64,000 bases of DNA from an uncultured virus (IMG/VR IMGVR_UViG_3300036790_000345) (Duplodnaviria > Heunggongvirae > Uroviricota > Caudoviricetes), in IMG/VR virus record IMGVR_UViG_3300036790_000345, one strand, 5' to 3'. The translations under genes were made by a program, and so were the position numbers. The notes beneath the pieces are model-generated. The model was given only the letters and a program-made list of their open reading frames with translations, ran no database searches and had not been told where the DNA came from. Positions within the stretch are counted from its first letter, which is position 1. Each line of letters begins with the position of its first letter. Positions 4,940 to 64,000 of the stretch are shown here, one piece after another.

Positions 4940-4941
4940 CC

Positions 4942-5818: not shown

Positions 5819-6173
5819 TGAGCAGTCCGAGTTCGTGATGCGCTACAGCGGCGGCGCGCCGCCGGGGCCGAAGGGCGACAAGGGCGAGCAGGGGGCGCTG
5901 CCCGCGCGGGCGCGCCGGTCCCTGCTCGCCCGCGACATCGTGATCATCTGCCTGCTGCTGCTGAATTTCCTGTTCACCGCCCACTACGTGAACAGCCAGC
6001 AGTCGGCGGCGCAGCGCGCCGGGGCGAAGGTGATCGCGAAGGTGTGCGCGGGGTTCGCGCGGCTGGCGGCGGAGAAACCCCCGGCGGGCAATCCGGCGAC
6101 GAACCCGTCGCGGGCGTTCGACCAGGGGCAGCACGCGACGCTGGTCGGCATCGGCGCCGACCTGTGCCGGTGA
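5811..6173 (+). CDS. Membrane protein of lysis cassette with short collagen-like GPKGDKGEQG
   Basis: GTG start overlapping previous gene; one TM helix. Confidence 0.5.
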   Translation: MSDEQSEFVMRYSGGAPPGPKGDKGEQGALPARARRSLLARDIVIICLLLLNFLFTAHYVNSQQSAAQRAGAKVIAKVCAGFARLAAEKPPAGNPATNPSRAFDQGQHATLVGIGADLCR

Positions 6174-6192
6174 AGCGATTAAGGAGACGGTT

Positions 6193-6480
6193 ATGAAGCC
6201 AAGCGTCGGACGCATCGTGCACTACGTCAGCTACGGCACCCCGGGCGGCGAGTACGCCAGCGAGTGCCGGGCTGCCGTCGTCACCGAGGTTGACCCGGTC
6301 TTGCAGCCAGAAGGCACGATGAGCGTCGGCCTGTGCGTGCTGAACCCGGCTGGCCAGTTCTTCAACCGGCACGTGCACTACCACGAGGGTGATGTCGGCC
6401 ACGATCACACCGGGGTTGAAATCCCGGAGCGAGCCTACCGGGGTGGCTCCTGGCACTGGCCGGAGCGGGTGGGCGAGTGA
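6193..6480 (+). CDS. Conserved phage hypothetical protein (KPSVGRIVHY type)
   Basis: AAGGAG RBS; recognisable N-terminal motif. Confidence 0.65.
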   Translation: MKPSVGRIVHYVSYGTPGGEYASECRAAVVTEVDPVLQPEGTMSVGLCVLNPAGQFFNRHVHYHEGDVGHDHTGVEIPERAYRGGSWHWPERVGE

Positions 6481-7235
6481 GCGGGGAACTGTCCGTCGAC
6501 TACTCGTGGGCGCGGCCCGCGCCAGCCGCGATCCGCGCCGCCGGCTACGCCGGCGTCTGGCGGTACCTTTCGGGCGGCACCGCAGGCAAAGACCTCACCA
6601 AAGAAGAGGCCGCAGCCCTGCACGGGGCCGGGCTCGGCATCGGGTGCGTGTGGGAGACCACCGCCCGGCGGGCCACCGAAGGCGCGGCGGCCGGGACTGC
6701 GGACGGGAAGGGCGCCGCGGCGCAGGCCCGGTCGGTGGGCTTGCCGCAAGGCTGCCCGCTGCTGGTCAACGTCGGCGACTTCGCAGGCGCCAGCGCCCAG
6801 CTCGACGTGATCGAGGCCTACTACCACGCCTTCCGCGCGGAGACCGAGGCCACCTGGCAGACCGGCGGGTACGCCACCGCGTTCATCATCGCCGGCCTCG
6901 GTCTCCGCGGCGCGCAGGGCCTCTGGTGGCAGAACGCGATGGACGACGGCGGGGTACCCGGCGACGTGGTGAGCCCGCACGCGAGCCTGTACCAGCGGGT
7001 GCGGCCGACACGCTCTATCGCAGGGAGCAAGGCCGGGGACTGGGACGAGGACATCGCCGTGGGCGGGGTGGCGGTGAACTGGTGGCGGCCGGCCGGCGCC
7101 CCTGCGCCGAAGCCAGCACCGTCACCCGCCCCCAAGCCCGCGGCGATCGAGGGTTACGTGGTCTACCCCGGGTCAGCGGGAGGGTACGCGGGGCGGGCAG
7201 TCACCTCGGCCGACGCGGGGAAAACCTGGGCCTGA
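6477..7235 (+). CDS. DUF1906/GH25-like glycoside hydrolase, putative endolysin
   Basis: VDYSWARP..IRAAGY.GVWRYLS...KDLT..EA..LH.AGL.I..VWET motif; end of late operon. Confidence 0.8.
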   Translation: MSGELSVDYSWARPAPAAIRAAGYAGVWRYLSGGTAGKDLTKEEAAALHGAGLGIGCVWETTARRATEGAAAGTADGKGAAAQARSVGLPQGCPLLVNVGDFAGASAQLDVIEAYYHAFRAETEATWQTGGYATAFIIAGLGLRGAQGLWWQNAMDDGGVPGDVVSPHASLYQRVRPTRSIAGSKAGDWDEDIAVGGVAVNWWRPAGAPAPKPAPSPAPKPAAIEGYVVYPGSAGGYAGRAVTSADAGKTWA

Positions 7236-7246
7236 CGCGCCGGCTG

Positions 7247-7498
7247 TCAGCGGTCCGGCACCGTCGCCAGCGCCGCATGCAGCTCGCCGGACGTGAGCAG
7301 CCCCGACCGCTGCTCCCACATCTCCCATGCCGCCACGTGCTTCGGGAAGCCCGCGCGCAGCCGGGCACGGTTACCGGGGTCGGCCTTGGCGATCAGCCGC
7401 AGCAGGTCGCCCGTGAACGAGGTCAGGTCGCCGCCGAGCGCCAGGCACAGCTCGTGCCAGGTCTCGACCTTGTGGTCACCGGGGAGCACGCTTCTCAT
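7247..7498 (-). CDS. Hypothetical protein
   Basis: 83-aa ORF with GAGAGGA RBS, SFTGDLLRLIAKADPGNRARL. Confidence 0.55.
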   Translation of the reverse strand: MRSVLPGDHKVETWHELCLALGGDLTSFTGDLLRLIAKADPGNRARLRAGFPKHVAAWEMWEQRSGLLTSGELHAALATVPDR

Positions 7499-11454: not shown

Positions 11455-12249
11455 TCAGGCGGTACGGGAGCGGGAGGAGCGGTCCAGGCGAGCCCAGCGG
11501 CCCTTTTCCCGGGTGCGCTCGCGGGGGACGAACTCGTCAGGGCGGCGGGCGAAGGGCGGCGCGCCATCTTTCGCCGCCGGGACGGGCTGGCTGCGGATTT
11601 CCGGGGCGCGGCGCGCGGGCTGCGGGTGGGAGCGCGCCTCAGCTTTCCGGGCCGCCGTCTCCAGTTCCTGTGCCCGGCCGAAGTCGTGTTCCGAGCGGGC
11701 ACGGGCGGCCTCGTCCCGGTACTGCGAGGTGAGCCGCTCGGTTTCGGTGACGGCCCTGGCCAGCCGCTGCGCCGGGGCGCGCTGCGCGGGCGGGACGAGC
11801 CCGGCCTGCTTCAGCAGGTCCGGCTGGCGGGCAGGCTGGCCGCTCCCCTTGGCGCGGGCGGGCGGGGGCCGCAGGCGCTCGCCGCGCTTCAGCGCCTTCT
11901 CGCGCTCCTTCAGGTCCGGGTTCGTCAGCGGGCCGCTCATCGGCGTGTGCCTGCGCCAGGGCGTTCCGGGCGCGGGTGCCGCGTGCCGCCGGCCCTTGGA
12001 GGCAGGCGCCGCGAGGCCGAGCCTGCGGTGCAGCGACGCGGGCGTGACCTTACGCGCAGCAGGCTTGAGCAGCCGGTCCTGCAGCCGGCGCTTGAATCCC
12101 CGCCGCTTGTGCAGGATGGCCTGGATCTCCTTGTGGGCGGCGACGCGCACCGCGTGAAAGGGCGAGCGCAGGTGCTTGATCGCCGCGTTCATGCGGAGCC
12201 GGTCGGGCCAGCTCAGCCGCTGGTGGGAACCTGAGTTCTGCTTAGCCAT
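11455..12249 (-). CDS. Basic hypothetical protein in transfer operon
   Basis: 264-aa ORF, GAGGAGGA RBS, co-oriented with neighbours. Confidence 0.55.
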   Translation of the reverse strand: MAKQNSGSHQRLSWPDRLRMNAAIKHLRSPFHAVRVAAHKEIQAILHKRRGFKRRLQDRLLKPAARKVTPASLHRRLGLAAPASKGRRHAAPAPGTPWRRHTPMSGPLTNPDLKEREKALKRGERLRPPPARAKGSGQPARQPDLLKQAGLVPPAQRAPAQRLARAVTETERLTSQYRDEAARARSEHDFGRAQELETAARKAEARSHPQPARRAPEIRSQPVPAAKDGAPPFARRPDEFVPRERTREKGRWARLDRSSRSRTA

Positions 12250-14042
12250 GCGGGTGCATCCTCCTCAATCTGTACGGGGTGACGGTCTTCGATCACGGGC
12301 GCGGGCGCGCCGGGCATCGGGATGGCATCGCGCGGGGCCGCGGCCTCAAGCTCGGGCGGCTGCGGCGCCAGCGCGGCCTGCTGGGCGGCCAGCAGTGCCG
12401 GGCCGAGCGGGGCGGGCTTGTAGCCGGGGAGCTTCCACGCGGGCTCCAGGCGCGCCAGCAGCGGGCGCGTGGAGCGGTGCAGCAGGACGGCCTGCCACGG
12501 CTTCAGGGTGCGGATCCGCTCCGGCGGGAACAGCCGCTCCTTGCCCGGCTGGCGGGTCTTGCGCCCGTCCGGGCCGCGGGAATGGTGCCAGGTGTCGCGC
12601 TCCCCGCACACCGCGGACAGGGCCTCGAGCTCGGCGTGGTCGTTGCGGCCGCGCAGGATGAGCTGGACGGTGGCGTTGTCGCGGATGGTCTTCGCCCCGT
12701 GCTCCCCCCACCGGGAGGCGAGTTGCGCCGGGGACTGGACTCCCGTGATGATCGTGATCCCGTGGCCCCCGGCCTCGGCGGACCACTTGTCGATGGGGAC
12801 CGGGCAGGTGATGGCGGGCTCGTCGAGGACCATCGTCAGGGGCGGGTCCAGGCGCATGCCCTCGCAGCGGGACGCCAGCCGCTTGGCCGTCGACCAGATA
12901 TGGGCGGTCATCCAGGCGCAGTAAGGGGCCACGCTGCCGTGCGGCTTGTCGGCCGCGATCAGGTACAGCGTCGCGCCGGAGAGGATGAAGTCGACGGCGT
13001 CGAACTCGGCGTCGCGCGGGCCGGGGCAGGCGACCATTTCCATGAACGGGTCGTCCATCCACGACACCGCGCCCTCGGCCGCCCCGGTGATGCCGTCCAG
13101 GGTTTCCGGGGCGATCGACAGCAGCCCGGCCAGCTTCCCGGCCCATCCCTCTGCCGCGGACGGCAGGCACAGGGCGGCGGCGAACCGCGGGTCAGCCGGG
13201 TTGCGCACCCACGCGGTCACGTGGCGCATGTCCCCGCCAGCGACCGCGGCGGCGTGCATCGCCAGGCGCAGCAATTCGGCGCCGCGCTGATCCCAGTGCG
13301 CGTCCTTCCCCGTCTTGTCGGACGGGGCGGCGTGCATCAGGTAGCCGGCGGACTCGATCGCGATCTGCGGGATATGGCACCCGGTCAGCGGCGACAGCAT
13401 GAAGTTCGTCGGCAGGTCCCCGTCACCGTCCGGGTTGAGCACCCACAGCGGGCCCTTCGCGGCTCTGGCCATCGCGGTGTGCACCCACGTGTCGGTGCGC
13501 GTGGTCGTGGAGATCGCGGCGCCGGGAGCCTCGGCCAGCCACGCGCATTCCGTCCCGGACTTGCCGGTACGGGGGGCGCCGATGAGCAGGATCACGTCCT
13601 CGTGGGAGGCCATCAGGGTGCGCGCCGGGGTGGTGCAGGACGAGCCGAGGCGGATGCCCGCGTCGGCCGCCGGGATCTTCCCGGCCAGCGCCGGGCGCGT
13701 CACCTTCGCCTGCTTGCGGGCCGCCCGGACCGACAGGCTGCCGCCGACCTCGCGCCGGGTGGCGGTCCCCTGGAACTTCCGCCGCTGCCTCGCGGCACGC
13801 TTGCCGCCCGAGCGGCGCTCCCGCAGGCTGTCCCAGCCATCCCGGCCGTACCAGACGGCCACGCCCCCGGCGGCGAAGCCGGTAAAGGGCAGCGGCGCCG
13901 CGTGGGCAAGCTGGAGGATCTCAGCGGCACCGAGGACGACCGCCGGCCTGACGGTGGCCTTCACCACGGCGCGCCGGGCCTTCTCCTTGCGGGCCTTGAC
14001 GAAGCCCTTCGCCGGGGGCTCGGGCTGCTTGCGCTTGATCAC
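12213..14042 (-). CDS. VirD4/TraD/TraG-like type IV coupling protein
   Basis: Walker A GAPRTGKSG, ISTTTRTD, LDPPLTMVLDEPA, GVQSPAQLASRWG..GAKTIRDNA. Confidence 0.85.
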   Translation of the reverse strand: MIKRKQPEPPAKGFVKARKEKARRAVVKATVRPAVVLGAAEILQLAHAAPLPFTGFAAGGVAVWYGRDGWDSLRERRSGGKRAARQRRKFQGTATRREVGGSLSVRAARKQAKVTRPALAGKIPAADAGIRLGSSCTTPARTLMASHEDVILLIGAPRTGKSGTECAWLAEAPGAAISTTTRTDTWVHTAMARAAKGPLWVLNPDGDGDLPTNFMLSPLTGCHIPQIAIESAGYLMHAAPSDKTGKDAHWDQRGAELLRLAMHAAAVAGGDMRHVTAWVRNPADPRFAAALCLPSAAEGWAGKLAGLLSIAPETLDGITGAAEGAVSWMDDPFMEMVACPGPRDAEFDAVDFILSGATLYLIAADKPHGSVAPYCAWMTAHIWSTAKRLASRCEGMRLDPPLTMVLDEPAITCPVPIDKWSAEAGGHGITIITGVQSPAQLASRWGEHGAKTIRDNATVQLILRGRNDHAELEALSAVCGERDTWHHSRGPDGRKTRQPGKERLFPPERIRTLKPWQAVLLHRSTRPLLARLEPAWKLPGYKPAPLGPALLAAQQAALAPQPPELEAAAPRDAIPMPGAPAPVIEDRHPVQIEEDAPAWLSRTQVPTSG

Positions 14043-26300: not shown

Positions 26301-27837
26301 GCGACGGCCGCCAGCCCGAGCGTGGCCCGGTCCTGCGGGCCCGCCGCAACGGCCTGCCCGTCACCCGGGCCTACGAGTACGGGAAGGCGTCCTACCCGTG
26401 GGCGGTGCGGGCACCGGAAGCCGCCGAGGCCGAGCACGGGACGCCGCCAGCGACGCGCGGGCCGAGGCCGCGCAAGGACAGAGGTGCCCGGTGACCGCCC
26501 CCGCCGTCAGCGACGTGCTGGAGCTGGTCGACGCCCGGCCCTGCCCGCGCAACGTGCGGTGGAACCGGGAACGGCTGCTCGCCCATATCGAGGACTACTT
26601 CTTCATCGGCGGCGACCAGCTGTCCCTCGCCCAGGTGGCGGAGCGGCTGGGGGTGCGGCCCCGCTCGGTCAGCCGCTGGCGCGCACTGCTGCGGGACGTG
26701 ACCGGGGGTGAGCGATGAGCCGGCCACTGAAGACAACCGAACCCGCCTACTGGATGCTCCTGGACGACTTCACGACCACGCCAGTCGTCCACCGTGACGG
26801 CTGCTACATCTGCGAAGACGCCGAGTTCGCCCAGATGGGCCTGCCGCTCTGCCGCCTGTGCCCGAAGTGCGTCGGCCTGGAAACCGGGACCGGTCACATT
26901 CCTGCCGACGACTCGGTGTGCGACGACTGCGGTTACGACGACCAGCCGGAAGAGGCGGCCCGGTGACCGGCCCGGCGGGCTGGCCCCGCCTGCGCCCCGG
27001 CCCGCGCGGCCGCCACCGGACTACACCCCCCGTCATCGAGGAGACCTCTGTGCCATCCCTTGCCGCTTCCCTGCCCGGCCCCATGCCGCGCTCGCTGGTG
27101 CAGCCCGCCATTGCCGTAGCCATCGAGGCTGACGCCGAGCCCGGCAAGGTCGTCGAGTGCGGCTTCTGTCATGTCTCCGGCCTGTCCTCCCAGATCCCCG
27201 CGATAGCCGGCCTGCGCAGGTGCACCGAGATCGACGAGTGCGTGCAGCGGGAGATCAAATATGCCACCAGCGGGGGACAGCCGAGACCGCTGATCAACTT
27301 CTCAGCGACACCGGAGCCGCTGCCCAAGCGCGAGCCCGCACCCGCTGGTTCCACTGCTGAGCCTTTGCCTGAACCCGAAGAGGAGCCGCTGCCGGAACTG
27401 CCCCCCGTCCAGGAGGCCGCCTTGGTCGCCTTCAACCGCGACCACGACGAGCAGGACGCGGCCGAGAAGGCAGCCGGGGAACCGGAAGCAGCCGGGCCCG
27501 CAGAACCCGGCACCGAGGACGAGGAGCCCGCGCAGGACAGCGCGCCCGTTCCCGTCGCCGAGCCTGAGCCCGCTTCTCCTGTCGCTGAGGATTCAGCCCC
27601 GGCCGAGGACACGGAAGGCGCCGGGTGATGGCCGCCACGATCGCCGAGCTCACCGATGACGCCACGGAACTGACCGCATGGGCCGCGGACCTGAACGACG
27701 GCACCCGCACGTGGGAGCAGTGGGACCCGGAGATGACCTGCGCGGACCGGCAGGACATGGCCTACGAGGAAGCCGCCCTGGCCGCGCGTGAGGCGTGGGA
27801 AGCGCTGAAAGCGGCTGAAAGGGGGACACGAGCATGA
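23357..27837 (+). other. Run of small overlapping hypothetical phage early genes
   Basis: Chain of ATGA/GTGA-overlapping ORFs (e.g. 23357, 23848, 24671, 25027, 25449, 25981, 26201, 26715, 27625). Confidence 0.6.
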
Positions 27838-28760
27838 CCGAGAACAAGCCACCGCAGATCTACGCGGCAATGGCAGCCGTGATGGCCGATATCGGGACCG
27901 TCGGCAAGAGTGGCGTCAACAAGGAGCAGCACTACAAGTTCCGCTCCATCGAAGACGTGATGTCGGCCGTTCGTGCTGGCCTCATCAAGCACGGCGTCTT
28001 CTACCTGCCCACCGTCGTAACCCGTGTCACCGAGACCCGGCAGACCGGCGGCGGCAAGCCGATGAACGTCATCCACCTTGAGATCCGCTACGACTTCTAC
28101 GCCACTGACGGCTCATCGGTGTCTTCTGTCGTGTGGGGCGAAGGTGCGGACATGGCCGACAAGGCCACCAACAAGGCCATGTCACAGGCGCTGAAGTACA
28201 ACCTCGTGCAGGCATTCTCCATTGCCGCCGAGGATATGCAGGACGCGGACAGAAGCGCCGAGGAAGCCGGCCCCGGCACCAGTTACAGGTCGGCGGGCGA
28301 GTCGTTCGAGAACGCCAGGCCCGCGCCGCCGCGGCCCCAGGCAAACGGGAGCACCGTACGGCCCGCGCAGGCAGCACGCCCCCCCGCTGCCGCTGACGGC
28401 GAGATCGACGAGGACGCCCAGGCCATCGCCGACGAGGCCAGCCAGGCGCGCACCACCGACACGCTCAGGGAGCTGAACACCCGGGCCCGCGAGGAGCACA
28501 AGCTCGCCTGCCTCATCCGCAACCCGACGACGGGGGGAACGGGCGGCCTCGGCCAGTACATCGCGTGGCGCAAGAGCGTCCTGGACAAGGCCGACCGGGC
28601 GCTTGACACGCTGATGAAGGCCGCTGAGACCGCGGGCATCGACACAACCGAGGCGGAACATCGGCTGATCGCGGCCAGCGGCCGCAACCTCGAGGAAGCC
28701 ACCGCCGAGGACATGCAGAAGGCGGCCAAGCTCATCCTCGAAGGGGCGGCTGCAGCGTGA
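27834..28760 (+). CDS. ERF-family single-strand annealing protein
   Basis: IYAAMAAVMADIGTVGKSGVNKEQHYKFRSIEDV..GEGADMADKATNKAMSQALKY. Confidence 0.85.
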   Translation: MTENKPPQIYAAMAAVMADIGTVGKSGVNKEQHYKFRSIEDVMSAVRAGLIKHGVFYLPTVVTRVTETRQTGGGKPMNVIHLEIRYDFYATDGSSVSSVVWGEGADMADKATNKAMSQALKYNLVQAFSIAAEDMQDADRSAEEAGPGTSYRSAGESFENARPAPPRPQANGSTVRPAQAARPPAAADGEIDEDAQAIADEASQARTTDTLRELNTRAREEHKLACLIRNPTTGGTGGLGQYIAWRKSVLDKADRALDTLMKAAETAGIDTTEAEHRLIAASGRNLEEATAEDMQKAAKLILEGAAAA

Positions 28761-37706: not shown

Positions 37707-38573
37707 GTGGCGAACCTCAAAGCACGCCGCGAGGAGATGCTCCGCGCAGCGCTCGCCTACGCCGGGCGCGGGTGGCACACATTCGTCCTGTCGCCGGGGA
37801 AAACACCGGTCGCCAACTGCGAGCCGTGCAAGAGCGAGCACATCTGGCCGCAGCAGATGGAAGCATGCGAGTGCCTGTGCTGCCACGGCTTCTACGCGGC
37901 GACGCTGGACGGCGGCCGCATCGCGGAAATGCTGAGGCTTCACCCGCGCGGGCTGCTGGCCGTCCGGACCGGCGCCCCGTCAGGCATCGCCGTGACCGAC
38001 GTCGACCTGCACGGCCTCCCCGCGATGCGGGATCTGCAGTCGCGCGGCCTTCTGCCGAGGACCGTGGCCGCGGCGACCGGCGGCGGCGGCTATCACCTGG
38101 TCTACCGGCATCCGGGCGTCAAGATCCGGTCAGGTGCCGGGAAGTACGCGCCCGGCATCGACTCGAAAGCGGACGGCGGCTACATCGTGGCCGCGCCCTC
38201 CGTCCATCCCCGGACGCGGCAGCCCTACCGGTGGCTGACTTCGTTCACCGCCGAGCCTGCCCCGCTGCCGGACCACTGGACGCAGCACCTCCGCGAACAT
38301 CCTCCGCCGCCACCCGGGACCACCGTCGTGCGCGGCACTCTTTACGGGCGCATGCACGGGCTGGTGCAGCATGTCCTCGGCGGCGGCGACGGGGACCGGA
38401 ACGGGCGCCTGTACTGGGCGTCCTGCCGGGCGGCGGAGATGGTGGCCGCCGGCGAGATCGAGCGGGCCGCCGCGGAGCGGCTGCTGATCGACGCCGCCCT
38501 CGAATCGGGGCTGCGCGGCGGCGAGCCGGAGGCCCGGCGCACTGTCCTGAGCGCCATGAGGCAGGCCGGATGA
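37707..38573 (+). CDS. Bifunctional DNA primase/polymerase (Prim-Pol)
   Basis: ALAYAGRGWHTFVL..K.P..HGFYAAT..DVD..TGGGGYHL..IDSKADGGYIVAAPS. Confidence 0.9.
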   Translation: MANLKARREEMLRAALAYAGRGWHTFVLSPGKTPVANCEPCKSEHIWPQQMEACECLCCHGFYAATLDGGRIAEMLRLHPRGLLAVRTGAPSGIAVTDVDLHGLPAMRDLQSRGLLPRTVAAATGGGGYHLVYRHPGVKIRSGAGKYAPGIDSKADGGYIVAAPSVHPRTRQPYRWLTSFTAEPAPLPDHWTQHLREHPPPPPGTTVVRGTLYGRMHGLVQHVLGGGDGDRNGRLYWASCRAAEMVAAGEIERAAAERLLIDAALESGLRGGEPEARRTVLSAMRQAG

Positions 38574-54200: not shown

Positions 54201-57031
54201 GGCTGCCAGACCACGCAGACGCCGAATTCGTGGCCATGATGAGCCCGCCCGTAGCCCTTCTCCTCGCTGACTTGCTGGAAGACGAGGCGCGCCTTGAGTT
54301 CGGTGCCGAGCCCGACACCCCGCTTCTGCTCGCCCGCGCGATCCTGAAGGAGTCCCGATGACCGCCCCGGACCGCCCGGCCGCCACGTCCGAGACCTACT
54401 CCTGGGCAGGCACCGACGCGAAGGGCATAGCCCACATCGGCCGCACCGGGTACACAGCCACCCAGATCGCGGTCATCACCGAGAACTACTACCGCAAGGG
54501 CTGGCGGTCGCTGCGCGTGGCCCGGGGCTGGGACCTGCCGGACGCGGGCACCGCGGATCTTGTCGCCGCGATCGGGCCGCATCCGGGAACCGGGCGCCGC
54601 ACGTGGTGGGCAGAGGGCGCCGGAGACGCTGAGCGCGCCGTGAGAGCGCAGCTAGGAGAGACCGATGGCCACTGACACCGACCACGCCCGCGCCTTCCTG
54701 GACGACTTCCGCCGTCGCGGCGAGGTCTTCGGCGAGTACTCCGCGCCGGATGTCAATCGTCTCCTCGCTGCGGCTGAGGCGGTACTGGCGAAAGCCGACT
54801 CGTGGCAGCGGTTCGCCGTTCCGGGCGATGTCGGCTACGACGATGCGCAAGCCTTCCGCGAGGCCATCACCACCGCACTGCTCGGTGAGGGGGACGACGA
54901 TGTCTGAAGCCGCCCCGGACCGGGCAGCCGCCGAACTGGCCGCCATCCGGGAGTACGCCGAAGCGGCCACCAAGGGCCCATGGTGGCACGACGAGGACGA
55001 GCTGATGTGGCGCCTCCACGGCGTGCACGCGGTCATCCCGGCGTGGCCGGACGGCCTGATCGGCGAGCAGGTCATGAACCATCAGATTCTCAAGGCACCC
55101 AAGAGCGGAACACCCTACGCCGAGTACTGGCCGTCGGAAGCTGACGGCGCGTTCATCACGCGCTCGCGGTCCGACCTGCCCCGTCTCCTCGCTGTGGTTG
55201 AGAAAGTCCTGGCGGCCCATCATGACTCCGGCGGACGCTGCTCCTGGTGCCGGAACCCCGACGGCCAGCGAGCGCTATGGCCCTGCGGGGAACACCTGAC
55301 CATCACCAGGGAACTGCTCGCCGAGGGGGACGGCCATGAAACTGACTGAGAGCGCGAAAACAACCCTCCGCGCGGCCGGCGTCACGCAGGCCGAGTGGGC
55401 ACGGGCGAACTACATGCGCGACGGCAAGTGGAGCGGGGATGTGTGCGGGTGCCCGGACTCTGGCCGCTGCGCCAACGGGTTCCACCACATGGGCACCGAC
55501 GACTGCGGCTGCCTGCCCGCGCTGCTGGAGTCGTACCTCGCCGGGGAAGGAATCTTCGACGTGACCCGCGCCGAGGAGCTTCAGCGCCGGCGAGGAGGTG
55601 CCCCTGTCATGACTGACTGGGGACCGTTCGAGACACGGGATGAAGCGTCGGCCTGCCCGGCTGTCCGCGAGATCCACGAAGCGCGGCACGCCTTCACCGG
55701 CCCCGTCACCGCCGAGACCCGCCGCGCCGACGAGGCGATGATCTCGGCGCTCATCCTCGCCGCCTGCGAGGAGGCCGGGGTCACGCTGGGCGCCTACGAC
55801 CGGCGGATCGCTGAGTGGCTGGCTGGCTTCGAGCCTGAGGCGTGCGCAGTGGTTGCCGGGCTCATCCGCAGGGCGGCAGCAGCGAAAGGGGATCCCGATG
55901 GCACCTGAGACCACGCCTAGCCGCTCGGTGACCTCGCGCGGGTTCGACACCTACGACGAGTTCCGCGATTCCTACGGCGCCGAAGTCACCGTCCGCCAGT
56001 CGTCAGCCGCCAGCGGCCCGCATGTGTGGCTGTTCATCACCGGCGGCGCCATGGTCAGCCCTGATCACCCCAACGACGGCTCGGCTCACCTGACCGTGGA
56101 GCAGGCTAAGCGCGTCCGGGACGCCCTGGACGCCTTCATTAAGGAGCGCGCCCCCGATGGCACCTGAGACCCCCCCTACCGCTGAGACGCTGGCGCTGTT
56201 CGAGATCAAGGCACGCGGCTACCACAACGGCGCGCGCGGCATCCTCGCCGCACGGCTGTCGGACTGCGCCGCCATCGACATCCCCCGTCTCGTCGCTGCG
56301 GTTGAGGCAGTACTCCGTGATCACGAGCCCCGCACACCGATACCGCCGAACAGGCATTACCGGATCTGCCGGGCCTGCAGCCGCATATGGCCGTGCGCGA
56401 CTGTTCAGGACGTCACCCGGGAACTGCTCGGCGAGGAGTACGGCCATGGCTAGCACCCGCCTGGCCGGCCACGCCCTGCAGCACGAAGGCAAGCCGTATA
56501 AGCCCGGCGAGCTGAACCCGTGGCTGCGGGCCTACGGCACCTCTTCCGGCGCAGGCCTGTGCGAGTGCGGGGAGACATCGCCCGTGCTGGGGTCCGATGC
56601 TGCCCGCAAGAGGTGGCACCGGGATGTTCACAAGCCGCAGGTGCGCGCCGGGGTCACCGGGGAGGGCGAGGATGGCTAGGCAGCGCAAACCCCTTGATGT
56701 CGAGGAAATCGTCAGGCTCTACCTGGACGAGCGCCTCTGGCCGCGCGAGATAGCCGCGCGCTTCGGGACGACGGCCATGACCGTCCGCAGCCGCCTGCGC
56801 GAGGCCGGCGTCTATGAGCCCGTATCGCAGGCGCGTGACCCTGGCGAGCGGTACCTCGTGCACCTGTGCGCCCGCTGTGCCCATCCCGGCGGCCAGCACC
56901 GCCTGGACGACGGTTGCCGGTGCGGCTTTTGCGGTGGCTGGGAGGATGCGGGCGAAGGGTACTGGAGCGACGCCATGACCCGTCAGCTTGAGATCGACGC
57001 GGGCATCACCAGGGAGGACGGCGATGGCTGA
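51244..57031 (+). other. Dense cluster of small hypothetical phage genes, many Cys-rich; 52100-52444 resembles DUF6283
   Basis: Consecutive RBS-preceded or overlapping ORFs. Confidence 0.6.
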
Positions 57032-57341
57032 CACCGTCGCCGGGTTCGCCTCGTTCGCCCTGGACCGCCTCGGCGAGCACTTCCCCGGCCACGCCGCCGA
57101 CCCGGCCCAGCATCTCCTCAAGCTCGGCGAGGAGTACGGGGAGCTGACCGGGGCGTGCATGCGCTACCTCGGCCGCTCCCGCCGCGCCGGGACGCTGGAG
57201 GAGGTAGCCGCCGAGGCCGCGGACGTGCTCATCACCCTGCACATCCTCGCCGCGTCCCTGGGCATCGACCTGGACGCCGCGTGGAGGGCCAAGGCGGCCG
57301 TGATCGCGGGCAGGCCGTGGCGGGAGGCCGGCGGTGAATGA
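57024..57341 (+). CDS. MazG-like nucleotide pyrophosphohydrolase
   Basis: KLGEEYGEL...EAADVL acidic motif; GGAGG RBS. Confidence 0.8.
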   Translation: MADTVAGFASFALDRLGEHFPGHAADPAQHLLKLGEEYGELTGACMRYLGRSRRAGTLEEVAAEAADVLITLHILAASLGIDLDAAWRAKAAVIAGRPWREAGGE

Positions 57342-57512
57342 TCACCCGTGTGTCGGACCGCACTTCCGCACCATCCGGGGCCGGATGATCTGCCAGTGCG
57401 GGTGTGAACGCTGCTCCGCCGACAAGCGGTACTGCACCTGCACGGGTTGCCAGTGCCGGAAGGACGAGGACCACGACGATGCCTGACTACCCGGCACCGG
57501 ATGGAGGCTGTG

Positions 57513-58019
57513 ATGGCTGAGCCTTGGCCGAAGACAATCCCCGACCCGGCAGACCCTTCCGGGCTGGCCAGCCTGCCGATGCCGGACGAGATGGCTCGCG
57601 CAGACCAGTACGTCCCGTCCCGGGCCGAGCTCGACAATGAGGCCTACCTGGTGTCCCGCGGCGTCCGCCCGCTGGCCCTGGCCGGCCACTACCCGGCCGT
57701 CCCGCTGGTCATGTGCCGGGTGAAAACCCTGCTGCACCGGGCCCGGCAGTCCGAGCTGGTGATCCCGTTCATTTTCGCCGAGGGCGGCGACCCTGGCTCC
57801 GCAGCGTTCGGCTACGCCTCGCACCGCTGGTGCATAGACCTGCTGGAGTGGGCCCTTGACGGCGGCGTGCCGCCGGACCGCAAGCACGAGATCCTCGGCC
57901 TGCTGCTCGGCTACTCGCCGTCATCGATAGCACGGCACCAGGAACGCGGCGAGCTGTGGGCGTACCGGGACGAGGACGAGCGCGATAAAAATTCCAAGAT
58001 CAGGTTCCCGGCAAGATGA
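57513..58019 (+). CDS. Hypothetical protein immediately upstream of the Cas12m-like gene
   Basis: GGAGG RBS; ends 14 nt before the effector start. Confidence 0.65.
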   Translation: MAEPWPKTIPDPADPSGLASLPMPDEMARADQYVPSRAELDNEAYLVSRGVRPLALAGHYPAVPLVMCRVKTLLHRARQSELVIPFIFAEGGDPGSAAFGYASHRWCIDLLEWALDGGVPPDRKHEILGLLLGYSPSSIARHQERGELWAYRDEDERDKNSKIRFPAR

Positions 58020-58033
58020 AGGAGGCTGGAGTC

Positions 58034-59686
58034 ATGAGCGAACACGCTGAACGCGACGTGCCTCTCATGCGAGCCTTCGCGTACGGCTGCCCGGCACGCG
58101 CTGACCTGGACGACGCCGGCATCCGCCAGCTCCGGCTGGCGAACCAGCTGTGGAACGCGCTGGTGGAGGCCGAGCACGCGCACGAGGACGCGAAGGCCGC
58201 GATCTGGGGGCGTGACCCGCGGGTCGCCGCCGCGCAGGAAACGCTCGCCGCCGCGCAGCAGGCCGCGGATGAGATCCGGGAACGGATACGCGCCAGCCGG
58301 CAGGCTGACCGGACCACGGTGCCCCGTGACGGCGACAAGTCCGCCCTCGCGGCTGCGTCCTCGGCGCGCAGGGAGGCGAAGACGGCGCTGGACGCCGCGC
58401 GGCAGGCTGCGCTGCCCGGCCTGCGGGAGGCGTTCGGCGAGGCGAAAAAGGCCCGCGCCGCCGCGCACAAGGCCCTGTACAAGACGTTCGTGCAGGAGAA
58501 AGGGCTCGGCTGGGGCACCCACAATGACATCGTGCGCCGCCGGTTTCCTGCTGCGGTGGCGAAGGTGGAGGAACGCCGCAAGTCGGGCCTGCCCGCGCAA
58601 CTGCGGTACAGGCGGTTCGATGGCACGGGGACGCTGACGGTGCAGGTTCAGCGGCAGGCCGGGCACCCGCCGCGCACCGTCCCGGCGCTGAACAGCGGCC
58701 GGCACCCGCAGTCCGGTGTCCTGGCCCTGACCCCGTGGCAGGACATGGCAGGCCGGCCGAAGGGCGCTGCGCGGCACGGCACGCTCACGGCCAGGATCGG
58801 CCGCGGGCGCGGCTTTGACCCGTTGCGGCTGGAGATCCCCGTGGTGCTGGACCGGTACCTGCCGGCGGGCGCGGACGTGTGCGAGGTGAAGATCAGCCGC
58901 CGGGTCACCGGCACCCACGCCCGGCTGTCAGTGTCGGTCGTCTGCCAGGTTCGCGAGCCCGCGCCGCGCGGCGGCCACGCTGACGTCGCTGTGCGTCTCG
59001 GCTGGAAGTCGGCCGGGGACGGGTGGACCGAGGTAGCGCACATCGGCAGCAGCGACCCGCTCCCGGCACCTCCTGCTGCCATTGCCGCGATCACTCGCGT
59101 CAGCGGGGACGGCCTGTCAGCGGACGTGCTGTACCCGGCCGAGTGGCGGAAGCTGCTCGAGCGGGACGCGGCCATACGGTCGGTGCGTGACCAGGATCTG
59201 GAGCCGGTGCGGGACAAGGTGACTGTGGCGCTGCGGCAGGACGCCGTGCTTGCGGAGTCCCTGGGCGTGACCGCGGGTGAGGTGTCGCGGTGGCGGGCAC
59301 CGCGCAGGTTCGCGGTTCTGGCCCGGTCGTGGCCGGCCGGGCACGAGCTGGCGCCCGTGCTGGAGGAGTGGCGGCGGCGGGACAGGCACCTGTACGACTA
59401 TGAGGCACACGAGCGCGCCCAGGTGACCGCCCGGCGGCGGGACGCGTGGCGGTGCGTGGCGGCGTGGCTGTGCACCGCTGCCGCCGGGGTCGCGGTTGAC
59501 GGCCTGGACGTGGCCGCGCTGAAACGCGAGCCGGATGTCAGCCGCGAGGATCCAGAGCAGGCCCGGCGCGGCCGTGCGCAGATGCACGCCGCGGCTCCCG
59601 GCGAGCTGCGCGCCGCTGTCCTCGCGGCGGCGAAGGCCAGGAAGATACCGGTTACCGTGATACGCAGGAGAAAGGACGAGACGTGA
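58034..59686 (+). CDS. cas12m: Type V-M (V-U1) Cas12m-like CRISPR effector, 550 aa, C-terminally shortened
   Basis: QLRLANQLWNALV, KALYKTF, LRYRRFDGTGTLTVQVQRQAGHPPRT, VAVRLGWKS, WRAPRRFA, AAPGELRAAV are collinear with Cas12m motifs as I recall them; AAGGAGG RBS; adjacent CRISPR array. Confidence 0.85.
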   Translation: MSEHAERDVPLMRAFAYGCPARADLDDAGIRQLRLANQLWNALVEAEHAHEDAKAAIWGRDPRVAAAQETLAAAQQAADEIRERIRASRQADRTTVPRDGDKSALAAASSARREAKTALDAARQAALPGLREAFGEAKKARAAAHKALYKTFVQEKGLGWGTHNDIVRRRFPAAVAKVEERRKSGLPAQLRYRRFDGTGTLTVQVQRQAGHPPRTVPALNSGRHPQSGVLALTPWQDMAGRPKGAARHGTLTARIGRGRGFDPLRLEIPVVLDRYLPAGADVCEVKISRRVTGTHARLSVSVVCQVREPAPRGGHADVAVRLGWKSAGDGWTEVAHIGSSDPLPAPPAAIAAITRVSGDGLSADVLYPAEWRKLLERDAAIRSVRDQDLEPVRDKVTVALRQDAVLAESLGVTAGEVSRWRAPRRFAVLARSWPAGHELAPVLEEWRRRDRHLYDYEAHERAQVTARRRDAWRCVAAWLCTAAAGVAVDGLDVAALKREPDVSREDPEQARRGRAQMHAAAPGELRAAVLAAAKARKIPVTVIRRRKDET

Positions 59687-60216
59687 TGACAGGCCAGATA
59701 CCGTCCGGGTCGATCGGGCAGCAGCTCCGCGAGGCGCTGAAGGCGGGCGCGACGCCGGAGGATGCGGTCCGCAAGGTGCTCGGCCCGTTCGGCGCGGTTC
59801 TCGCGGAGGCAGGCAATGATCACCTGGTCGGGTATGCGCGGCCGGCGGTGCTGTCGGAGGCGCGGCGGCTGGGCCGTCAGCTGATCCGCCGGGCGGAGGA
59901 CCGGTCGTTCGGCGCGGCGCCGGCGTCGCGGGACCGGATGCGGCTGGGGCAGATCGAGTTTCACCTGCCGGATGGCCAGGTGGTGTCGTGGGCGGATGCG
60001 ACAGCGGAGCAGCACGGGGCGCGTATCGCGTGGCTGCGGACGTATATCTCCAGCGTGGAGGAGGACCTGGCCCGTCATGAGCGGGCGGCGAAGCTGCTGG
60101 CTGAGCATGGCGCGGCGAAGCTGTCCGACATCCCCGGGTGGGAGGATCTGATCGGCGACGACGCGGACAGCGAAGACGCGGATGACGGGGATGCGAGCGC
60201 TGAGGCGGTAGCCTGA
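59683..60216 (+). CDS. Uncharacterised 177-aa protein between effector and array, acidic C-terminal tail
   Basis: GTGA overlap with the effector stop, AAAGGA RBS, high-GC3 codon usage. Confidence 0.8.
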   Translation: MMTGQIPSGSIGQQLREALKAGATPEDAVRKVLGPFGAVLAEAGNDHLVGYARPAVLSEARRLGRQLIRRAEDRSFGAAPASRDRMRLGQIEFHLPDGQVVSWADATAEQHGARIAWLRTYISSVEEDLARHERAAKLLAEHGAAKLSDIPGWEDLIGDDADSEDADDGDASAEAVA

Positions 60217-60360
60217 AAGCCGGGGAGCGCTCGCACGCAGGTCAGGGCGGGTATTGCGCATCTTGACAACTGAACGTATGAGCGAAAAGGTGTTCGCGGA
60301 ACGGTCCGCTCGCAGTGGTCCCGCATACCCGCAGGCCAGGTGCCCCGTATTCTGCGAGCC
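60217..60360 (+). promoter_or_regulatory. CRISPR leader
   Basis: Non-coding, relatively AT-rich, TTGACA at 60263; at the non-degenerate end of the array. Confidence 0.6.
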
Positions 60361-61277
60361 GTCGCTATGCCGGCGCAGAGGCTTCGTATCTGCGAGCGTT
60401 GAGGTATTCAGATCGGGCCGATCTGGCGTCCCGGTCGCTATGCCGGCGCAGAGGCTTCGTATCTGCGAGAGGCCCTCCAGCGTGGAGGCCAGCTCGTCGT
60501 CGATGAGTCGCTATGCCGGCGCAGAGGCTTCGTATCTGCGAGAGGCCCTCCAGCGTGGAGGCCAGCTCGTCGTCGATGAGTCGCTATGCCGGCGCAGAGG
60601 CTTCGTATCTGCGAGCGGATCTACGACGTGCTACCGGACGACGAGAAGATCATGTCGCTATGCCGGCGCAGAGGCTTCGTATCTGCGAGGATATCAGCTG
60701 CTGGCAGTGCGGCCCGGTGTGCGCGGGGTCGCTATGCCGGCGCAGAGGCTTCGTATCTGCGAGGCATCGGTTAGTGCCGTGGCGGCCGGTCGCCAGCACG
60801 TCGCTATGCCGGCGCAGAGGCTTCGTATCTGCGAGTAGTCCACCTTCACGGCTCGCTGGTCGACGTACATGAGGTCGCTATGCCGGCGCAGAGGCTTCGT
60901 ATCTGCGAGGGGGGCAAGGCCCATACGCCTGCCTCGACTCGGACGACGTCGCTATGCCGGCGCAGAGGCTTCGTATCTGCGAGACATCCACTCCGTGAGG
61001 TCGGCGCTCGCTAGCTCGCGTCGCTATGCCGGCGCAGAGGCTTCGTATCTGCGAGATGTCGGAGACCGGGGTGACGCGCAACTCCGGCTTCGTCGTAATG
61101 CCAGCGCAGAGGCTTCGTATCTGCGAGCTGTTGATGTGGCCCACCGCGTCGGCGATCTTGTCGATGTCGTCGCTATGCCAGCGCAGAGGCTTCGTATCTG
61201 CGAGGTACAGTGTGGTGCAGGGGGCGTCTCCGACTCGCAGAGTCGTAATGCCAGCGCAGAGGCTTCGTATCTGCGAG
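60361..61277 (+). CRISPR. CRISPR array: 13 repeats of 36 bp (GTCGCTATGCCGGCGCAGAGGCTTCGTATCTGCGAG) and 12 spacers of 36-41 bp
   Basis: Repeats start at 60361, 60434, 60507, 60580, 60654, 60728, 60800, 60874, 60948, 61020, 61092, 61169, 61242; 3' hairpin CGCAGA/TCTGCG; last three repeats carry variants. Confidence 0.99.
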
Positions 61278-61311
61278 AAGCCAGCTATCCGCGCGATCCA
61301 TCAAGATCATC

Positions 61312-61641
61312 TTGTCGCAGGTGGACGACGAGGCACTGGCCGCCTTCGGCCGCAGCCTCACTGCCCAGATGGAAGGCGTCCAGGAATGGATGCGGCAGGC
61401 CTTCCATCTGCTCGCCCGCGCGGTCGCCCGGGCCGCAGACGACACGGGCAAGATGCTCGCCGCGGCGTTCAGCTACACCTGGGACGACCGGCTGCACTAT
61501 CACGCCCCGGACGCACCCCGCCGGGTGCTTCGCCGCTGCCGGGCCTGTCACCCGGAGGGCAACCCGCTCCCGCTGGCCGTTGACGGCAGGGGGTACCGGC
61601 GGCGGCAGTCAGCTCGCAGGCGGCGCGGCAGAGGCCAGTGA
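61312..61641 (+). CDS. Hypothetical protein or 5'-truncated gene remnant after the array
   Basis: Coding-like composition but no clear RBS or start. Confidence 0.35.
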   Translation: MSQVDDEALAAFGRSLTAQMEGVQEWMRQAFHLLARAVARAADDTGKMLAAAFSYTWDDRLHYHAPDAPRRVLRRCRACHPEGNPLPLAVDGRGYRRRQSARRRRGRGQ

Positions 61642-62583
61642 TGCGGCCAGAGCGTAAACGGGGGAGTGGTCAAGCCGGGAGCGCATCCGGTCGTAGCGCT
61701 CGGTAGTCCGCGGGTCGACGTGGCCGGCTAGCGCCTGCACGTCCCGCAGTGAGCAACCGCGCTCGAGCGCCTCGGTCAGCGCCGAGTGCCGCAGCGAGTG
61801 GGGATGCAGCGCATTCGCCTGCGGCAGTTTCGCCCGCACTGCGATGCGGCGGATCAGCCGGTACAGGCCCGGCTCGTCAAGACGCCCGCGGCCGCCATCG
61901 CGCGGCGAGGTCGCGAAGAGCGGGCCGTCAATGCGCCCGTCCAGGTAGGCGTCCAGCACGACGCCGACCCACGGCGCGACCGGCAGGTGCTGGCGCCTGC
62001 CGCCCTTCCGGGTGACCGTGAGCACCCGGTGGCCCCCCGTGTGGCCTAGGTCGTTCACATCTGCCGCGAGTACCTCGGTGGTCCGCGCCCCCGTGGTCAG
62101 CATCACGGCGGCGAGGGCGTGCGCCCGGCGCGAGTGCGCCTGGGCCGCCTCGAGGAACGCGACCATCTCCTTGCGGTTCAGCCACGAGATCGTGTCCTCG
62201 TCCTGCTGGCGCTTCGGCCGCTTCATCTCCTTGATCGGGTTGGCTTCCATGTCGCCGGTCTCTGCGGCGTAGCTGAAGAACGACGACGACGACGACAGCC
62301 GCCGCGCGATGGTCGCCTCGGAGACCGCCCGCGAGCCGTCTTCGCGAACTGTGCGGCGCATCGACTCGGCCCACGCCGCTACCTGCCGCCGCGTCGCCGC
62401 GAGGACGCTGGTGCCGTGCTCGCCGAGGAATGCCGCGAGAAGCCTGATGTCCTTCGCGTACGCGGTGCGCGTGTTGGCGCCCGGGTGCTCGAGCAGCCAT
62501 CCGGTGATGGCGCTCAGGGAGTCGCTGTCTGCGGCGATGACGGCGAGCGCGTCAGGCTCGGCCGCGGCGGGCAAGATCGTCAT
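61609..62583 (-). CDS. Tyrosine recombinase (XerC/D-like)
   Basis: TGARTTE, RKGG, HPHSLRH, LAGH, TTERY catalytic residues; N-terminal NTRTAY..D. Confidence 0.92.
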   Translation of the reverse strand: MTILPAAAEPDALAVIAADSDSLSAITGWLLEHPGANTRTAYAKDIRLLAAFLGEHGTSVLAATRRQVAAWAESMRRTVREDGSRAVSEATIARRLSSSSSFFSYAAETGDMEANPIKEMKRPKRQQDEDTISWLNRKEMVAFLEAAQAHSRRAHALAAVMLTTGARTTEVLAADVNDLGHTGGHRVLTVTRKGGRRQHLPVAPWVGVVLDAYLDGRIDGPLFATSPRDGGRGRLDEPGLYRLIRRIAVRAKLPQANALHPHSLRHSALTEALERGCSLRDVQALAGHVDPRTTERYDRMRSRLDHSPVYALAASLASAAPPAS

Positions 62584-62960: not shown

Positions 62961-64000
62961 CTAGACGGGGATGCCGGAGTGCCCCGGCCCCTGCCATGGC
63001 GGTTCCCAGGCGGGGAACACCCGGGCATGGCAGTCCTGCCCGTCCTCGCCGCGCCATGCCACCACCGAGAGGATCAGGCCGGCCAGCGCGTTCCGGGCCC
63101 GGTCCGGGCGCATGGTGTCCCACTCGTCCAGCAGTGTGCGGATGACCGGGTGCACGTCGGGTGCCATGCCGCCGGCCCGCTGCTGCTCGCGGGCCAGCAA
63201 GGTGACGATCCGCTCCCGCTCGGCGAGCAGCTCGGCTCTCGCCCCGGCCCATGCCCGCGCGGGGACGTCCTCCTCGCGTGCCTGCCGGGCCAGGAGCCGG
63301 GCCAGTTCCCGGTCCTTCTTCGCGAGCTCGGCCTCCAGCTGCCCGGCGCTGGCCCGCGCGGCGGAGACCGCCGCCCCGGCCGCGGCCAGCCCCTGCTCGC
63401 CGGCGAGGCGGATGTCCTCGGCGGCGAGCCACGCCAGGACGGCGCCGAGGACGGCGTCGTAGCGGACGCCCCGCCCTCGCGAGGGACAGTCCTTGTACCG
63501 GTCCCAGCGGGAGCACCGCGCCAGCGTCCGTGCCGTGCCGTGCGAGATCTTCAGGACGGCCTTCGCCCCGCAGTGCCCGCATTGCAGGAGGCCGGTCAGC
63601 GCGTAGCGGGGCGCGCGGGAGCGCGGCGGGGTGGCGCTGACCGCGGCGCGCCGGCGCAGGTACGCCTGCCATTCGGGGGGGCTGATGACAGGCTCGTGGG
63701 CGCCGGCGAGCAGGACCGTGCGTGAGCAGCGGGCCGCCTTGCCGCAGCCGCACGCCGGGTCGTGGACGCGCAGGTACCCGGCGCCGAACCCGGAGTCGAG
63801 GGTGCGCCGGACAAGGTAGGGCGCCCACCTGGTGCCGCGGGTGTTGCGGATCCCCGCGTCGTTGAGCACGGCCGCGATGACGGCCGGCTGGTCGCCCCGG
63901 ATGTAGGAGAGGTACATCTCGCGCAGCACCGGCCCGGTCAGCGGGTCGTGCTCGTACCGCTCGCCGGCCGGGTCGGCGGTGTCGCGGCGGGTGCGGCGCG
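62961..64000 (-). CDS. Large serine recombinase/integrase, C-terminal part (5' beyond window)
   Basis: IAAVLNDAGIRNTRGTRW, GAHEPVIS, LTGLLQCGHCG zinc ribbon, coiled coil; frame open to the window end. Confidence 0.88.
   Translation of the reverse strand, partial: RRTRRDTADPAGERYEHDPLTGPVLREMYLSYIRGDQPAVIAAVLNDAGIRNTRGTRWAPYLVRRTLDSGFGAGYLRVHDPACGCGKAARCSRTVLLAGAHEPVISPPEWQAYLRRRAAVSATPPRSRAPRYALTGLLQCGHCGAKAVLKISHGTARTLARCSRWDRYKDCPSRGRGVRYDAVLGAVLAWLAAEDIRLAGEQGLAAAGAAVSAARASAGQLEAELAKKDRELARLLARQAREEDVPARAWAGARAELLAERERIVTLLAREQQRAGGMAPDVHPVIRTLLDEWDTMRPDRARNALAGLILSVVAWRGEDGQDCHARVFPAWEPPWQGPGHSGIPV

Follow-up and report, generated by a model that had tools for sequence, protein, structure and literature searches.

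The DNA analyzed here is a stretch of 64,000 nucleotides (nt) from an uncultured virus of the Caudoviricetes (IMG/VR record IMGVR_UViG_3300036790_000345), referred to below as the window. It contains a CRISPR cassette in which a C-terminally truncated cas12m gene (58016..59686) is followed by a small accessory gene (59683..60216), by a presumed leader (60217..60360) and by a CRISPR array (60361..61277), all on the plus strand. This is the order given in a preliminary description of the window, which had placed the small gene between the effector gene and the leader and had regarded it as coupled to an effector without its C-terminal module.

The array has 13 repeats, each 36 nt long, which are separated by 12 spacers of 36-41 nt. 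Spacers 2 and 3 (60470-60506 and 60543-60579) are identical, a repeat-spacer unit of 73 nt being duplicated with 100% identity. The leader is defined by its position only, as the 144 nt between the accessory stop codon and the first repeat; it is likely to be the leader because the variant repeats (61092, 61169 and 61242) occupy the array end that is remote from it. A sigma-70-type scan of 57300-61700 found no promoter-like site. Pfam was applied to 44 of the 86 genes predicted in the window, and neither cas1 nor cas2 was found among these 44. An adjacent array of structured repeats of about 36 nt and no adaptation genes, as found here beside the effector, is the arrangement of type V-M. When compared with plasmids and phages, the spacers gave no significant match (best E value 0.07), and within the window and all of the loci described below there were only chance matches of 14 nt.

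The truncated effector and the accessory gene

The effector is a protein of 556 amino acids (aa) in which WED, REC and most of RuvC are present and the TNB zinc finger and RuvC-III are absent. Its homology to characterized Cas12m proteins (WED, REC1/REC2 sickle and RuvC) was apparent both in sequence and in fold. Residues 34-550 aligned with residues 22-543 of the 598 residues of Cas12m2 (PDB 8hhl; E value 3e-59), and the PADLOC model Cas12u1 was matched over positions 4-487 of its 533 (E value 3.4e-97). The AlphaFold2 (AF2) model of the effector, with a predicted local distance difference test score (pLDDT) of 89.6, was matched by Foldseek to 8hhl_A with an E value of 7.9e-41, a template modeling (TM) score of 0.86 and a root-mean-square deviation of 2.8. 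The PDB, PADLOC and fold matches all ended before the C-terminus of Cas12m, and the model finishes with a strand at residues 546-549. The truncation assumed in the preliminary description was thereby confirmed: the chain stops right after the last beta-strand of RuvC.

The last residues of the chain are ...GELRAAVLAAAKARKIPVTVIRRRKDET. The HxxC..CxxC..D tail that full-length relatives carry, and that reads HxxC..CxxC..D(Q/P)D in those found here, is missing from the window effector and from its near relatives, and no HCCC zinc-finger TNB domain is present. The first two RuvC positions are occupied by R327 and D495 and the third lies beyond the end of the protein, so that no DED, HDD or NDD triad is formed. 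In our alignment of homologues (A2), 24 of the 29 rows were truncated like the window effector. The zinc ligands H549, C552, C569 and C572 of Cas12m2 and its RuvC residue D579 all fall past the truncation point, and full-length Cas12m holds the non-target strand in a groove between RuvC and TNB, as described in the text of Omura 2023 (PMC10442227). According to passages of a preprint (10.64898/2026.03.26.714355), deletion of TNB residues 551-578 from PmCas12m markedly reduced or abolished its activity.

The accessory gene encodes 177 aa if translated from the GTG at 59683 and 176 aa from the in-frame ATG at 59686, the latter form being that of its database entry (P0001). The strings quoted for it in the preliminary description (FHLPDGQVVSWADAT, QH, RIAWL and an acidic tail) are all present. 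The start overlaps the effector stop codon (TGA, 59684-59686) by 4 nt (GTGA) or by 1 nt (TGATG), depending on the start codon, within the junction sequence GTGATGA, and a Shine-Dalgarno-like purine-rich stretch, AGGAGAAAGGA, can be read from the sequence 5' of the start, within the 3' end of cas12m (59666..59676, plus strand). The AF2 model, built from 25 sequences (pLDDT 89.2; predicted TM score 0.67), agreed with the earlier impression of a mostly helical protein. The chain forms six helices (residues 11-20, 25-42, 47-77, 83-90, 108-142 and 153-157), with a single beta-hairpin at 92-94/100-102, and its tail (166-177) is disordered. Residues 1-145 are basic, with an isoelectric point (pI) of 9.3, whereas the last 31 residues (146-176) carry a net charge of -12; a C-terminal GWE motif is also present. 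There is no cysteine among the 177 residues. No paralogue of the gene was found elsewhere in the window.

A word-seeded search returned 24 further homologues of 147-188 aa (E values 4e-86 to 6e-12), all from metagenomes; the single one with a name is a 'hypothetical' protein from a metagenome-assembled genome of the Streptosporangiaceae. Invariant residues include F93, P96, W103, H111, R114, W117, D128 and R131-H132-E133-R134; the tail varies in length, with a recurrent ASGEVVP-like tip. In four pairs of loci, the ratio of nonsynonymous to synonymous substitution rates (dN/dS) was 0.45-0.49 for the accessory gene and 0.47-0.67 for the effector gene, indicating that the accessory gene is under purifying selection and is constrained no less than the effector gene. 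Its homologues, its dN/dS and its GC content at third codon positions of 0.85, in a window of 70.6% GC, establish that it is a real, conserved gene and more than a chance ORF (open reading frame).

In agreement with the statement that the protein is not a recognizable Cas protein, no curated model, PDB entry or fold matched it. Pfam, NCBIfam and PADLOC gave no match at default cut-offs, the best PHROGs match was phrog_6029 (E value 0.11), and nothing was found below an E value of 0.04 in the PDB by sequence or by profile. Profile searches of the PDB with two alignments (A1 and A3) gave rows at chance level only (HU, E value 0.39; RecX, E value 0.22; a designed repeat, without a passing stretch). 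With the AF2 model, Foldseek found nothing in the PDB at an E value of 0.001 or less, a wide VIA-align search had a best Z of 5.1, which is noise level for helical proteins, and the best match in BFVD was to uncharacterized mycobacteriophage proteins (E value 0.083). Scans of genome contigs and of viral contigs with alignment A1 found no member of the close family, a scan with A6 found none either, and tblastn of the window protein and of a distant member (P0096) against named phage and plasmid collections gave no match.

We considered the possibility that the accessory protein is the detached and diverged C-terminus of Cas12m (TNB and RuvC-III), translated separately. By eye, its FHLPDG..VSWADAT and DLARHERAAKLL (also RHERAAKLL) recall HxxCG..WCxxC and DQDxNAAxNL, and hhalign placed them in the same register. 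Yet the comparison with six full-length tails gave a probability of 0.27% and an E value of 0.22, the absence of cysteines leaves no zinc site, and about 90 extra residues would have to be explained at the N-terminus. Furthermore, the relatives of the protein form 1103 clusters of small phage proteins, whose four contexts read on DNA are unlinked to Cas12, and no fused form occurs among the 150 best matches. A split gene is therefore highly improbable, and this candidate was rejected.

Linkage to Cas12m proteins that lack the C-terminal module

The order truncated cas12m, accessory gene, array was found in all eight distinct loci read on DNA, namely the window, five metagenome loci (L001-L005), a provirus (L008) and a viral contig (L019). 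Each of the five metagenome loci, all of which encode a close relative of the accessory protein, has a Cas12m homologue ending directly upstream and related repeats downstream, and related repeats also follow the accessory gene in L008 and L019. The 61-kb provirus is identical to two further records (L018 and L022), the latter from the genome of Phytoactinopolyspora limicola HAJB-30. In the 93-kb viral contig, the cas12m stop codon and the accessory gene are separated by two repeat units (4850-4964), and the main array comes after the accessory gene. Seven further accessory/effector pairs were inferred solely because contigs of equal length were returned by the searches with the two proteins.

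A stop/start overlap of 1-4 nt behind a purine-rich stretch was present in five of the six junctions examined, the sixth being that of L019 with its two intervening repeats. GGAGG or AGGAAGG stretches resembling AGGAGAAAGGA precede the junction in L001, L002, L005 and L008. Such an overlap is a signature of translational coupling, by which two proteins are made in fixed proportion.

In contrast, a profile of the accessory family (A3), which recovered the window ORF with an E value of 6.8e-53, detected no family member in five loci that encode full-length Cas12m with the HCCC and Asp tail, whether in the locus itself or in the entire record (viral contigs L009 and L010; Mycobacterium plasmids L011-L013). 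The coupling of the small gene to a Cas12m without C-terminal module, as put forward in the preliminary description, was thus seen in 8 of 8 truncated loci and in 0 of 5 full-length records. As a separate observation, the full-length cas12m of L010 lies between short runs of degenerate repeat-like units spaced by 51-56 nt (3774-3912 and 6004-6095).

The effector and accessory genes are the only conserved genes that the loci have in common; no third one was found. Four other genes of the window (up190, orf117, orf144 and orf50) had no matches in the other loci, and its integrase had a single weak match (E value 6e-4, in L005). These data demonstrate that the accessory gene is a conserved, selected and translationally coupled part of the truncated-Cas12m cassette, and we consider it likely that its product is functionally tied to Cas12m. 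The concern that homologues might sit mostly far from cas12m, also raised in the preliminary description, does not apply to the close subfamily, in which 8 of 8 are linked; it holds only for the distant members described below, 4 of 4 of which are without Cas12m in the fetched flanks.

Trees of the two proteins were consistent with a common history. In a quick, unrooted IQ-TREE tree of the effector (40 rows, the fragments P0050 and P0051 being excluded), one branch with a support of 99 in the SH-like approximate likelihood ratio test (SH-aLRT) split 29 truncated from 11 full-length rows, and three verified carriers of the accessory gene (L005, L008 and L019) were among the deepest lineages of the truncated side. 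In the accessory tree, also quick and unrooted (114 rows after removal of two exact duplicates), a branch with an SH-aLRT of 99 set the four free rows apart from the 15 linked rows (8 verified and 7 inferred), which were accompanied by 24 rows without an assigned context. Pairwise identities of effector and accessory were correlated across 12 pairs (Pearson r 0.84; Mantel p 0.0002). The simplest history that may account for these unrooted trees is that the C-terminal module was lost once and a phage gene captured once, on the same branch, and that both changes were retained.

We also considered that the accessory might be an ordinary phage gene that came to lie beside an ancestral cassette of truncated cas12m and array, and that was linked to it by descent with no role in CRISPR. 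Its family is common in phages without Cas12m, and shared inheritance by itself produces linkage and co-divergence. However, a mere hitch-hiker would not be expected to remain inside the cassette in all eight loci while effector identity fell to about 43% and the element backbones differed, or to keep the stop/start overlap in five of six junctions together with a purifying selection like that of the effector. The other window genes tested were not shared, apart from the weak match of the integrase, and in L019 the gene has been retained despite the presence of repeats on both of its sides. This explanation is therefore quite improbable.

Phage relatives of the accessory protein

The accessory protein belongs, as judged from sequence comparison, to a large unannotated family of small (about 150-aa) phage proteins. 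An exhaustive profile search with alignment A1 retrieved 1103 clusters at an E value of 0.001 or less, 217 at 1e-10 or less and 7 at 1e-30 or less; a cluster look-up gave no names, and the nearest ESM-Atlas clusters were 80-92% viral. The window protein shares with this wider family the core motifs F.LPDG..V.W, H..R..W and RHE.A. Most members have 140-200 aa; among the best 150 matches the longest has 321 aa, and none is a fusion of the family core to a protein of the size of Cas12. In two of the larger ones (P0079 and P0084; 269 and 321 aa), the core is preceded by about 100-150 additional aa, which include a Cys-rich stretch (..YSCSHCTG.. in one and ..YSCGHCRG.. in the other). Pfam gave no credible match for 65 distant members. 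Four of these 65 matched phrog_4604, of unknown function, weakly over its full length (E values 0.0012-0.0097); the window protein itself did not match it. Compared with this phrog_4604-like family, the clade linked to Cas12m shows an additional C-terminal GW motif and acidic tail, and its place within a CRISPR cassette is constant. Proteins on the linked side extend past the core by a median of about 26 residues versus 7, with a tryptophan within 8 residues in 71% versus 15% of the rows.

Neither a Cas12m homologue nor an array was found in the fetched flanks of four distant members, which lie on three viral contigs (L006, L017, L007 and L021; flanks of 1.5-6 kb, reaching the contig end in L007). 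Two of them are carried by one 128-kb phage contig (G002; L006 at 5932-7315, plus strand, and L017 at 2229-599, minus strand), where each of these free paralogues lies directly upstream of a protein of about 283 aa. The two neighbors are paralogous as well (34.5% identity; E value 7e-36). They match phrog_4285 ('transposase'; E values 2.6e-25 and 3.8e-27), carry a G(L/V)GEHTVARLLGAIGDP motif and have Atlas models that resemble IS110-family transposases (TM 0.51-0.54), and no profile similarity to Cas12m was detected. A free paralogue and its neighbor of about 283 aa may thus form a conserved two-gene module, although a scan for further such pairs returned the same phage only.

The phage origin of the family raises the possibility that the accessory protein is a regulator or a brake, i.e., a transcriptional autoregulator of the cas12m/array operon, or a built-in inhibitor of the anti-CRISPR type that would hold back binding by the Cas12m of its own element until this is required, with its acidic tail as a nucleic-acid mimic. 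The absence of a CRISPR link in the four distant contexts and the viral composition of the ESM-Atlas clusters are in line with this, as is the strong negative charge of the last 31 residues. In addition, the sequence finishes in -AA in 69 of the 149 representatives of the family (in [VAIL]AA in 27 of 149), a C-terminus that is typical of protease-labile proteins such as regulators, so that these ends may be a recognition or degradation signal. Two faint, non-significant resemblances also link the N-terminal helices to RecX, which inhibits RecA (VIA Z 4.3; the PDB profile match cited above). On the other hand, the close Cas12m-linked subfamily ends in ASGEVVP-like tips and not in -AA, and profile searches detected neither a helix-turn-helix nor any other DNA-binding family. 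If the protein were purely a regulator, its restriction to just those cassettes whose effector has lost the C-terminus would be unexpected, and the fixed proportions suggested by the stop/start overlap are more typical of subunits. We consider this role unlikely for these reasons; a DNA mimic, one of the options of the preliminary description, would probably not involve the entire protein, residues 1-145 being basic and only the last 31 acidic. In the legend to Fig. 2A of PMC11656645, some plasmid loci are said to include a 'transcription regulator' gene, which may or may not concern V-M loci or the accessory gene.

Possible role in type V-M silencing and the mobile-element context

Taken together, the accessory protein is probably a second component of a Cas12m DNA-silencing system. 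The preliminary description had offered three roles, a subunit replacing the lost C-terminal module, a factor giving the dead Cas12 a new output, and a regulator or DNA mimic. The data do not decide among them, but the evolutionary coincidence of the C-terminal loss with the gain of the gene favors a replacement or partner. As the best overall explanation, we therefore propose, with a confidence that approaches an even chance, that the protein is a dedicated accessory of one type V-M clade whose Cas12m lost TNB and the RuvC-III helix. That it acts as a compensating subunit bound to the truncated Cas12m is a tentative proposal, to which we give a somewhat lower than even probability.

According to this proposal, the accessory protein would bind truncated Cas12m as its second subunit, and its basic helical core would cover the face of RuvC that is exposed by the truncation. 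The parts of the core involved could be the arginine-rich helix 47-77, the beta-hairpin (here taken as residues 92-102) and the long helix 108-142 with the invariant R131-H132-E133-R134. The protein would help to keep the R-loop or the displaced non-target strand in place, a task performed in full-length Cas12m by the RuvC/TNB groove, and rival mobile elements would thereby continue to be silenced through binding. The disordered tail, which is acidic and has the ASGEVVP-like tip, might serve as a self-inhibiting or partner-docking arm.

Several observations weigh against this proposal. TldRs, which are C-terminally truncated and lack the zinc finger and RuvC part, bind DNA in an RNA-guided manner unaided, as reported in the text of PMC10705468, and the truncated effector is modeled confidently on its own; compensation may therefore be unnecessary. 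The hhalign comparison indicated no homology of the accessory protein to the TNB/RuvC-III tail, so that any substitution could be by analogy only. The wider family occurs mostly without Cas12m, and its ancestral function must have been something else. As for the linkage itself, the 'linked' accessory clade includes 24 rows besides the 15 whose context was read or inferred, and both linkage and co-divergence are also expected for neighbors that travel on one mobile element.

Alternatively, the accessory protein could provide a new output, in that the nuclease-dead Cas12m, once bound to DNA, would recruit or block another factor through it (a protein of the host or of the element, a polymerase or a nuclease) and so be more than a passive roadblock. 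The association of Cas12m with Cas3, which adds interference beyond binding (text of PMC10910872), offers a precedent. The disordered acidic linker with its semi-conserved tip resembles a docking arm, and the position of the two G002 paralogues upstream of phrog_4285 proteins suggests that a DNA-acting neighbor is the usual partner of the family. Yet the searches revealed no domain of enzymatic or known interaction type, the cassette has no third conserved gene, and such an adaptor leaves the coincidence with the loss of TNB and RuvC-III unexplained by itself. We regard this explanation as doubtful. Returning to the compensating subunit, it could be extended into a general scheme, in which Cas12m of the truncated clade has become a two-protein effector that depends on a phage-captured subunit for closing the RuvC lobe and clamping the displaced strand, and in which the subunit family may generally partner RuvC-fold, nucleic-acid-guided DNA binders. 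This idea, suggested by the free paralogues of G002 that adjoin IS110-like paralogues, is speculative and rather improbable.

The cassette can be compared with three known systems. The type V-M proteins Cas12m2 from Mycolicibacterium mucogenicum, GoCas12m and PmCas12m (structures 8HHL and 8PM4) are homologous to the window effector in sequence and fold, and the window shares with type V-M the 36-nt repeat design seen beside full-length relatives, the carriage by a mobile element and the degenerate nuclease center. The expected action of such systems is silencing by binding, according to the text of Omura 2023 (PMC10442227) and of Bigelyte 2024. The difference is that the described systems consist of a single protein with a RuvC lobe and a zinc-finger TNB, whereas the window lacks TNB and RuvC-III and has an extra gene before the array. 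The text passages covered, from PMC10442227, PMC11013384, 10.64898/2026.03.26.714355, PMC12669027, PMC11656645, PMC10705468, PMC10691335 and PMC10910872, make no mention of a TNB-less Cas12m clade or of the accessory gene.

TldRs, as described in passages of PMC10705468 and, with flagellin-TnpB, of PMC10691335, are similar in being RNA-guided proteins of the RuvC fold that have lost the zinc finger and RuvC-III, that bind DNA, that have a constant non-nuclease neighbor and that are often found in prophages. Unlike the window effector, they use a single omega-type guide RNA and no CRISPR array, and their neighbors, fliC-like genes and oppF, are targets or cargo and unrelated to the accessory gene; moreover, the truncation seen in the window arose within the Cas12m lineage. 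The multi-component systems Cas12k with TniQ, TnsC and S15 and Cas12m-Cas3 (passages of PMC10910872) likewise combine a nuclease-dead Cas12 with added proteins. They differ in that the partner in the window, a protein of 177 aa, belongs to no known family and is encoded in a cassette without transposase, helicase or nuclease.

Type V-M gains with these data a new associated gene family, for the mechanism of which the competing readings have been graded above. Cas12m is regarded as a compact DNA binder consisting of one protein, and its development for gene circuits and for base and epigenome editing is under way. A clade without TNB and RuvC-III that carries a constant small protein would imply either that replacement of the module in trans is possible or that a dead Cas12 has acquired a new activity that depends on a partner. 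Either case is relevant to the limits of effector minimization and to how RNA-guided proteins acquire phage subunits, and the link to Cas12m gives a first clue to the function of small phage proteins that form a large family without annotation.

The window itself is a mobile element, and its DNA occurs in a soil-metagenome run, with no RNA run listed among those that contain it. Close to the CRISPR cassette, Pfam identified genes for a tyrosine integrase (61609-62583, minus strand) and a serine recombinase (62961-63929, minus strand), and farther away for a TraG/TraD-type coupling protein (12213-14042, minus strand), an ERF recombinase (27834-28760) and a Prim-Pol (37707-38573), besides helicases, a methylase and a DUF5131 protein. 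These mobile-element genes fit the text of PMC11656645, according to which V-M systems are enriched on plasmids and prophages. As the element combines a conjugative coupling protein with phage-type ERF, Prim-Pol and DUF5131 genes, an integrative conjugative element, a plasmid and a phage-plasmid are candidates for its nature. Finally, the region 54665-56453 contains several small ORFs with the same end sequence, none of which has a Pfam match. The proteins finish in ..LLGEGDDDV, ..RELLAEGDGHETD and ..RELLGEEYGHG, and the corresponding DNA repeats (45 nt, 73% identity) lie at 54861, 55297 and 56407, which suggests that these ORFs are tandem small paralogues with a conserved C-terminus.

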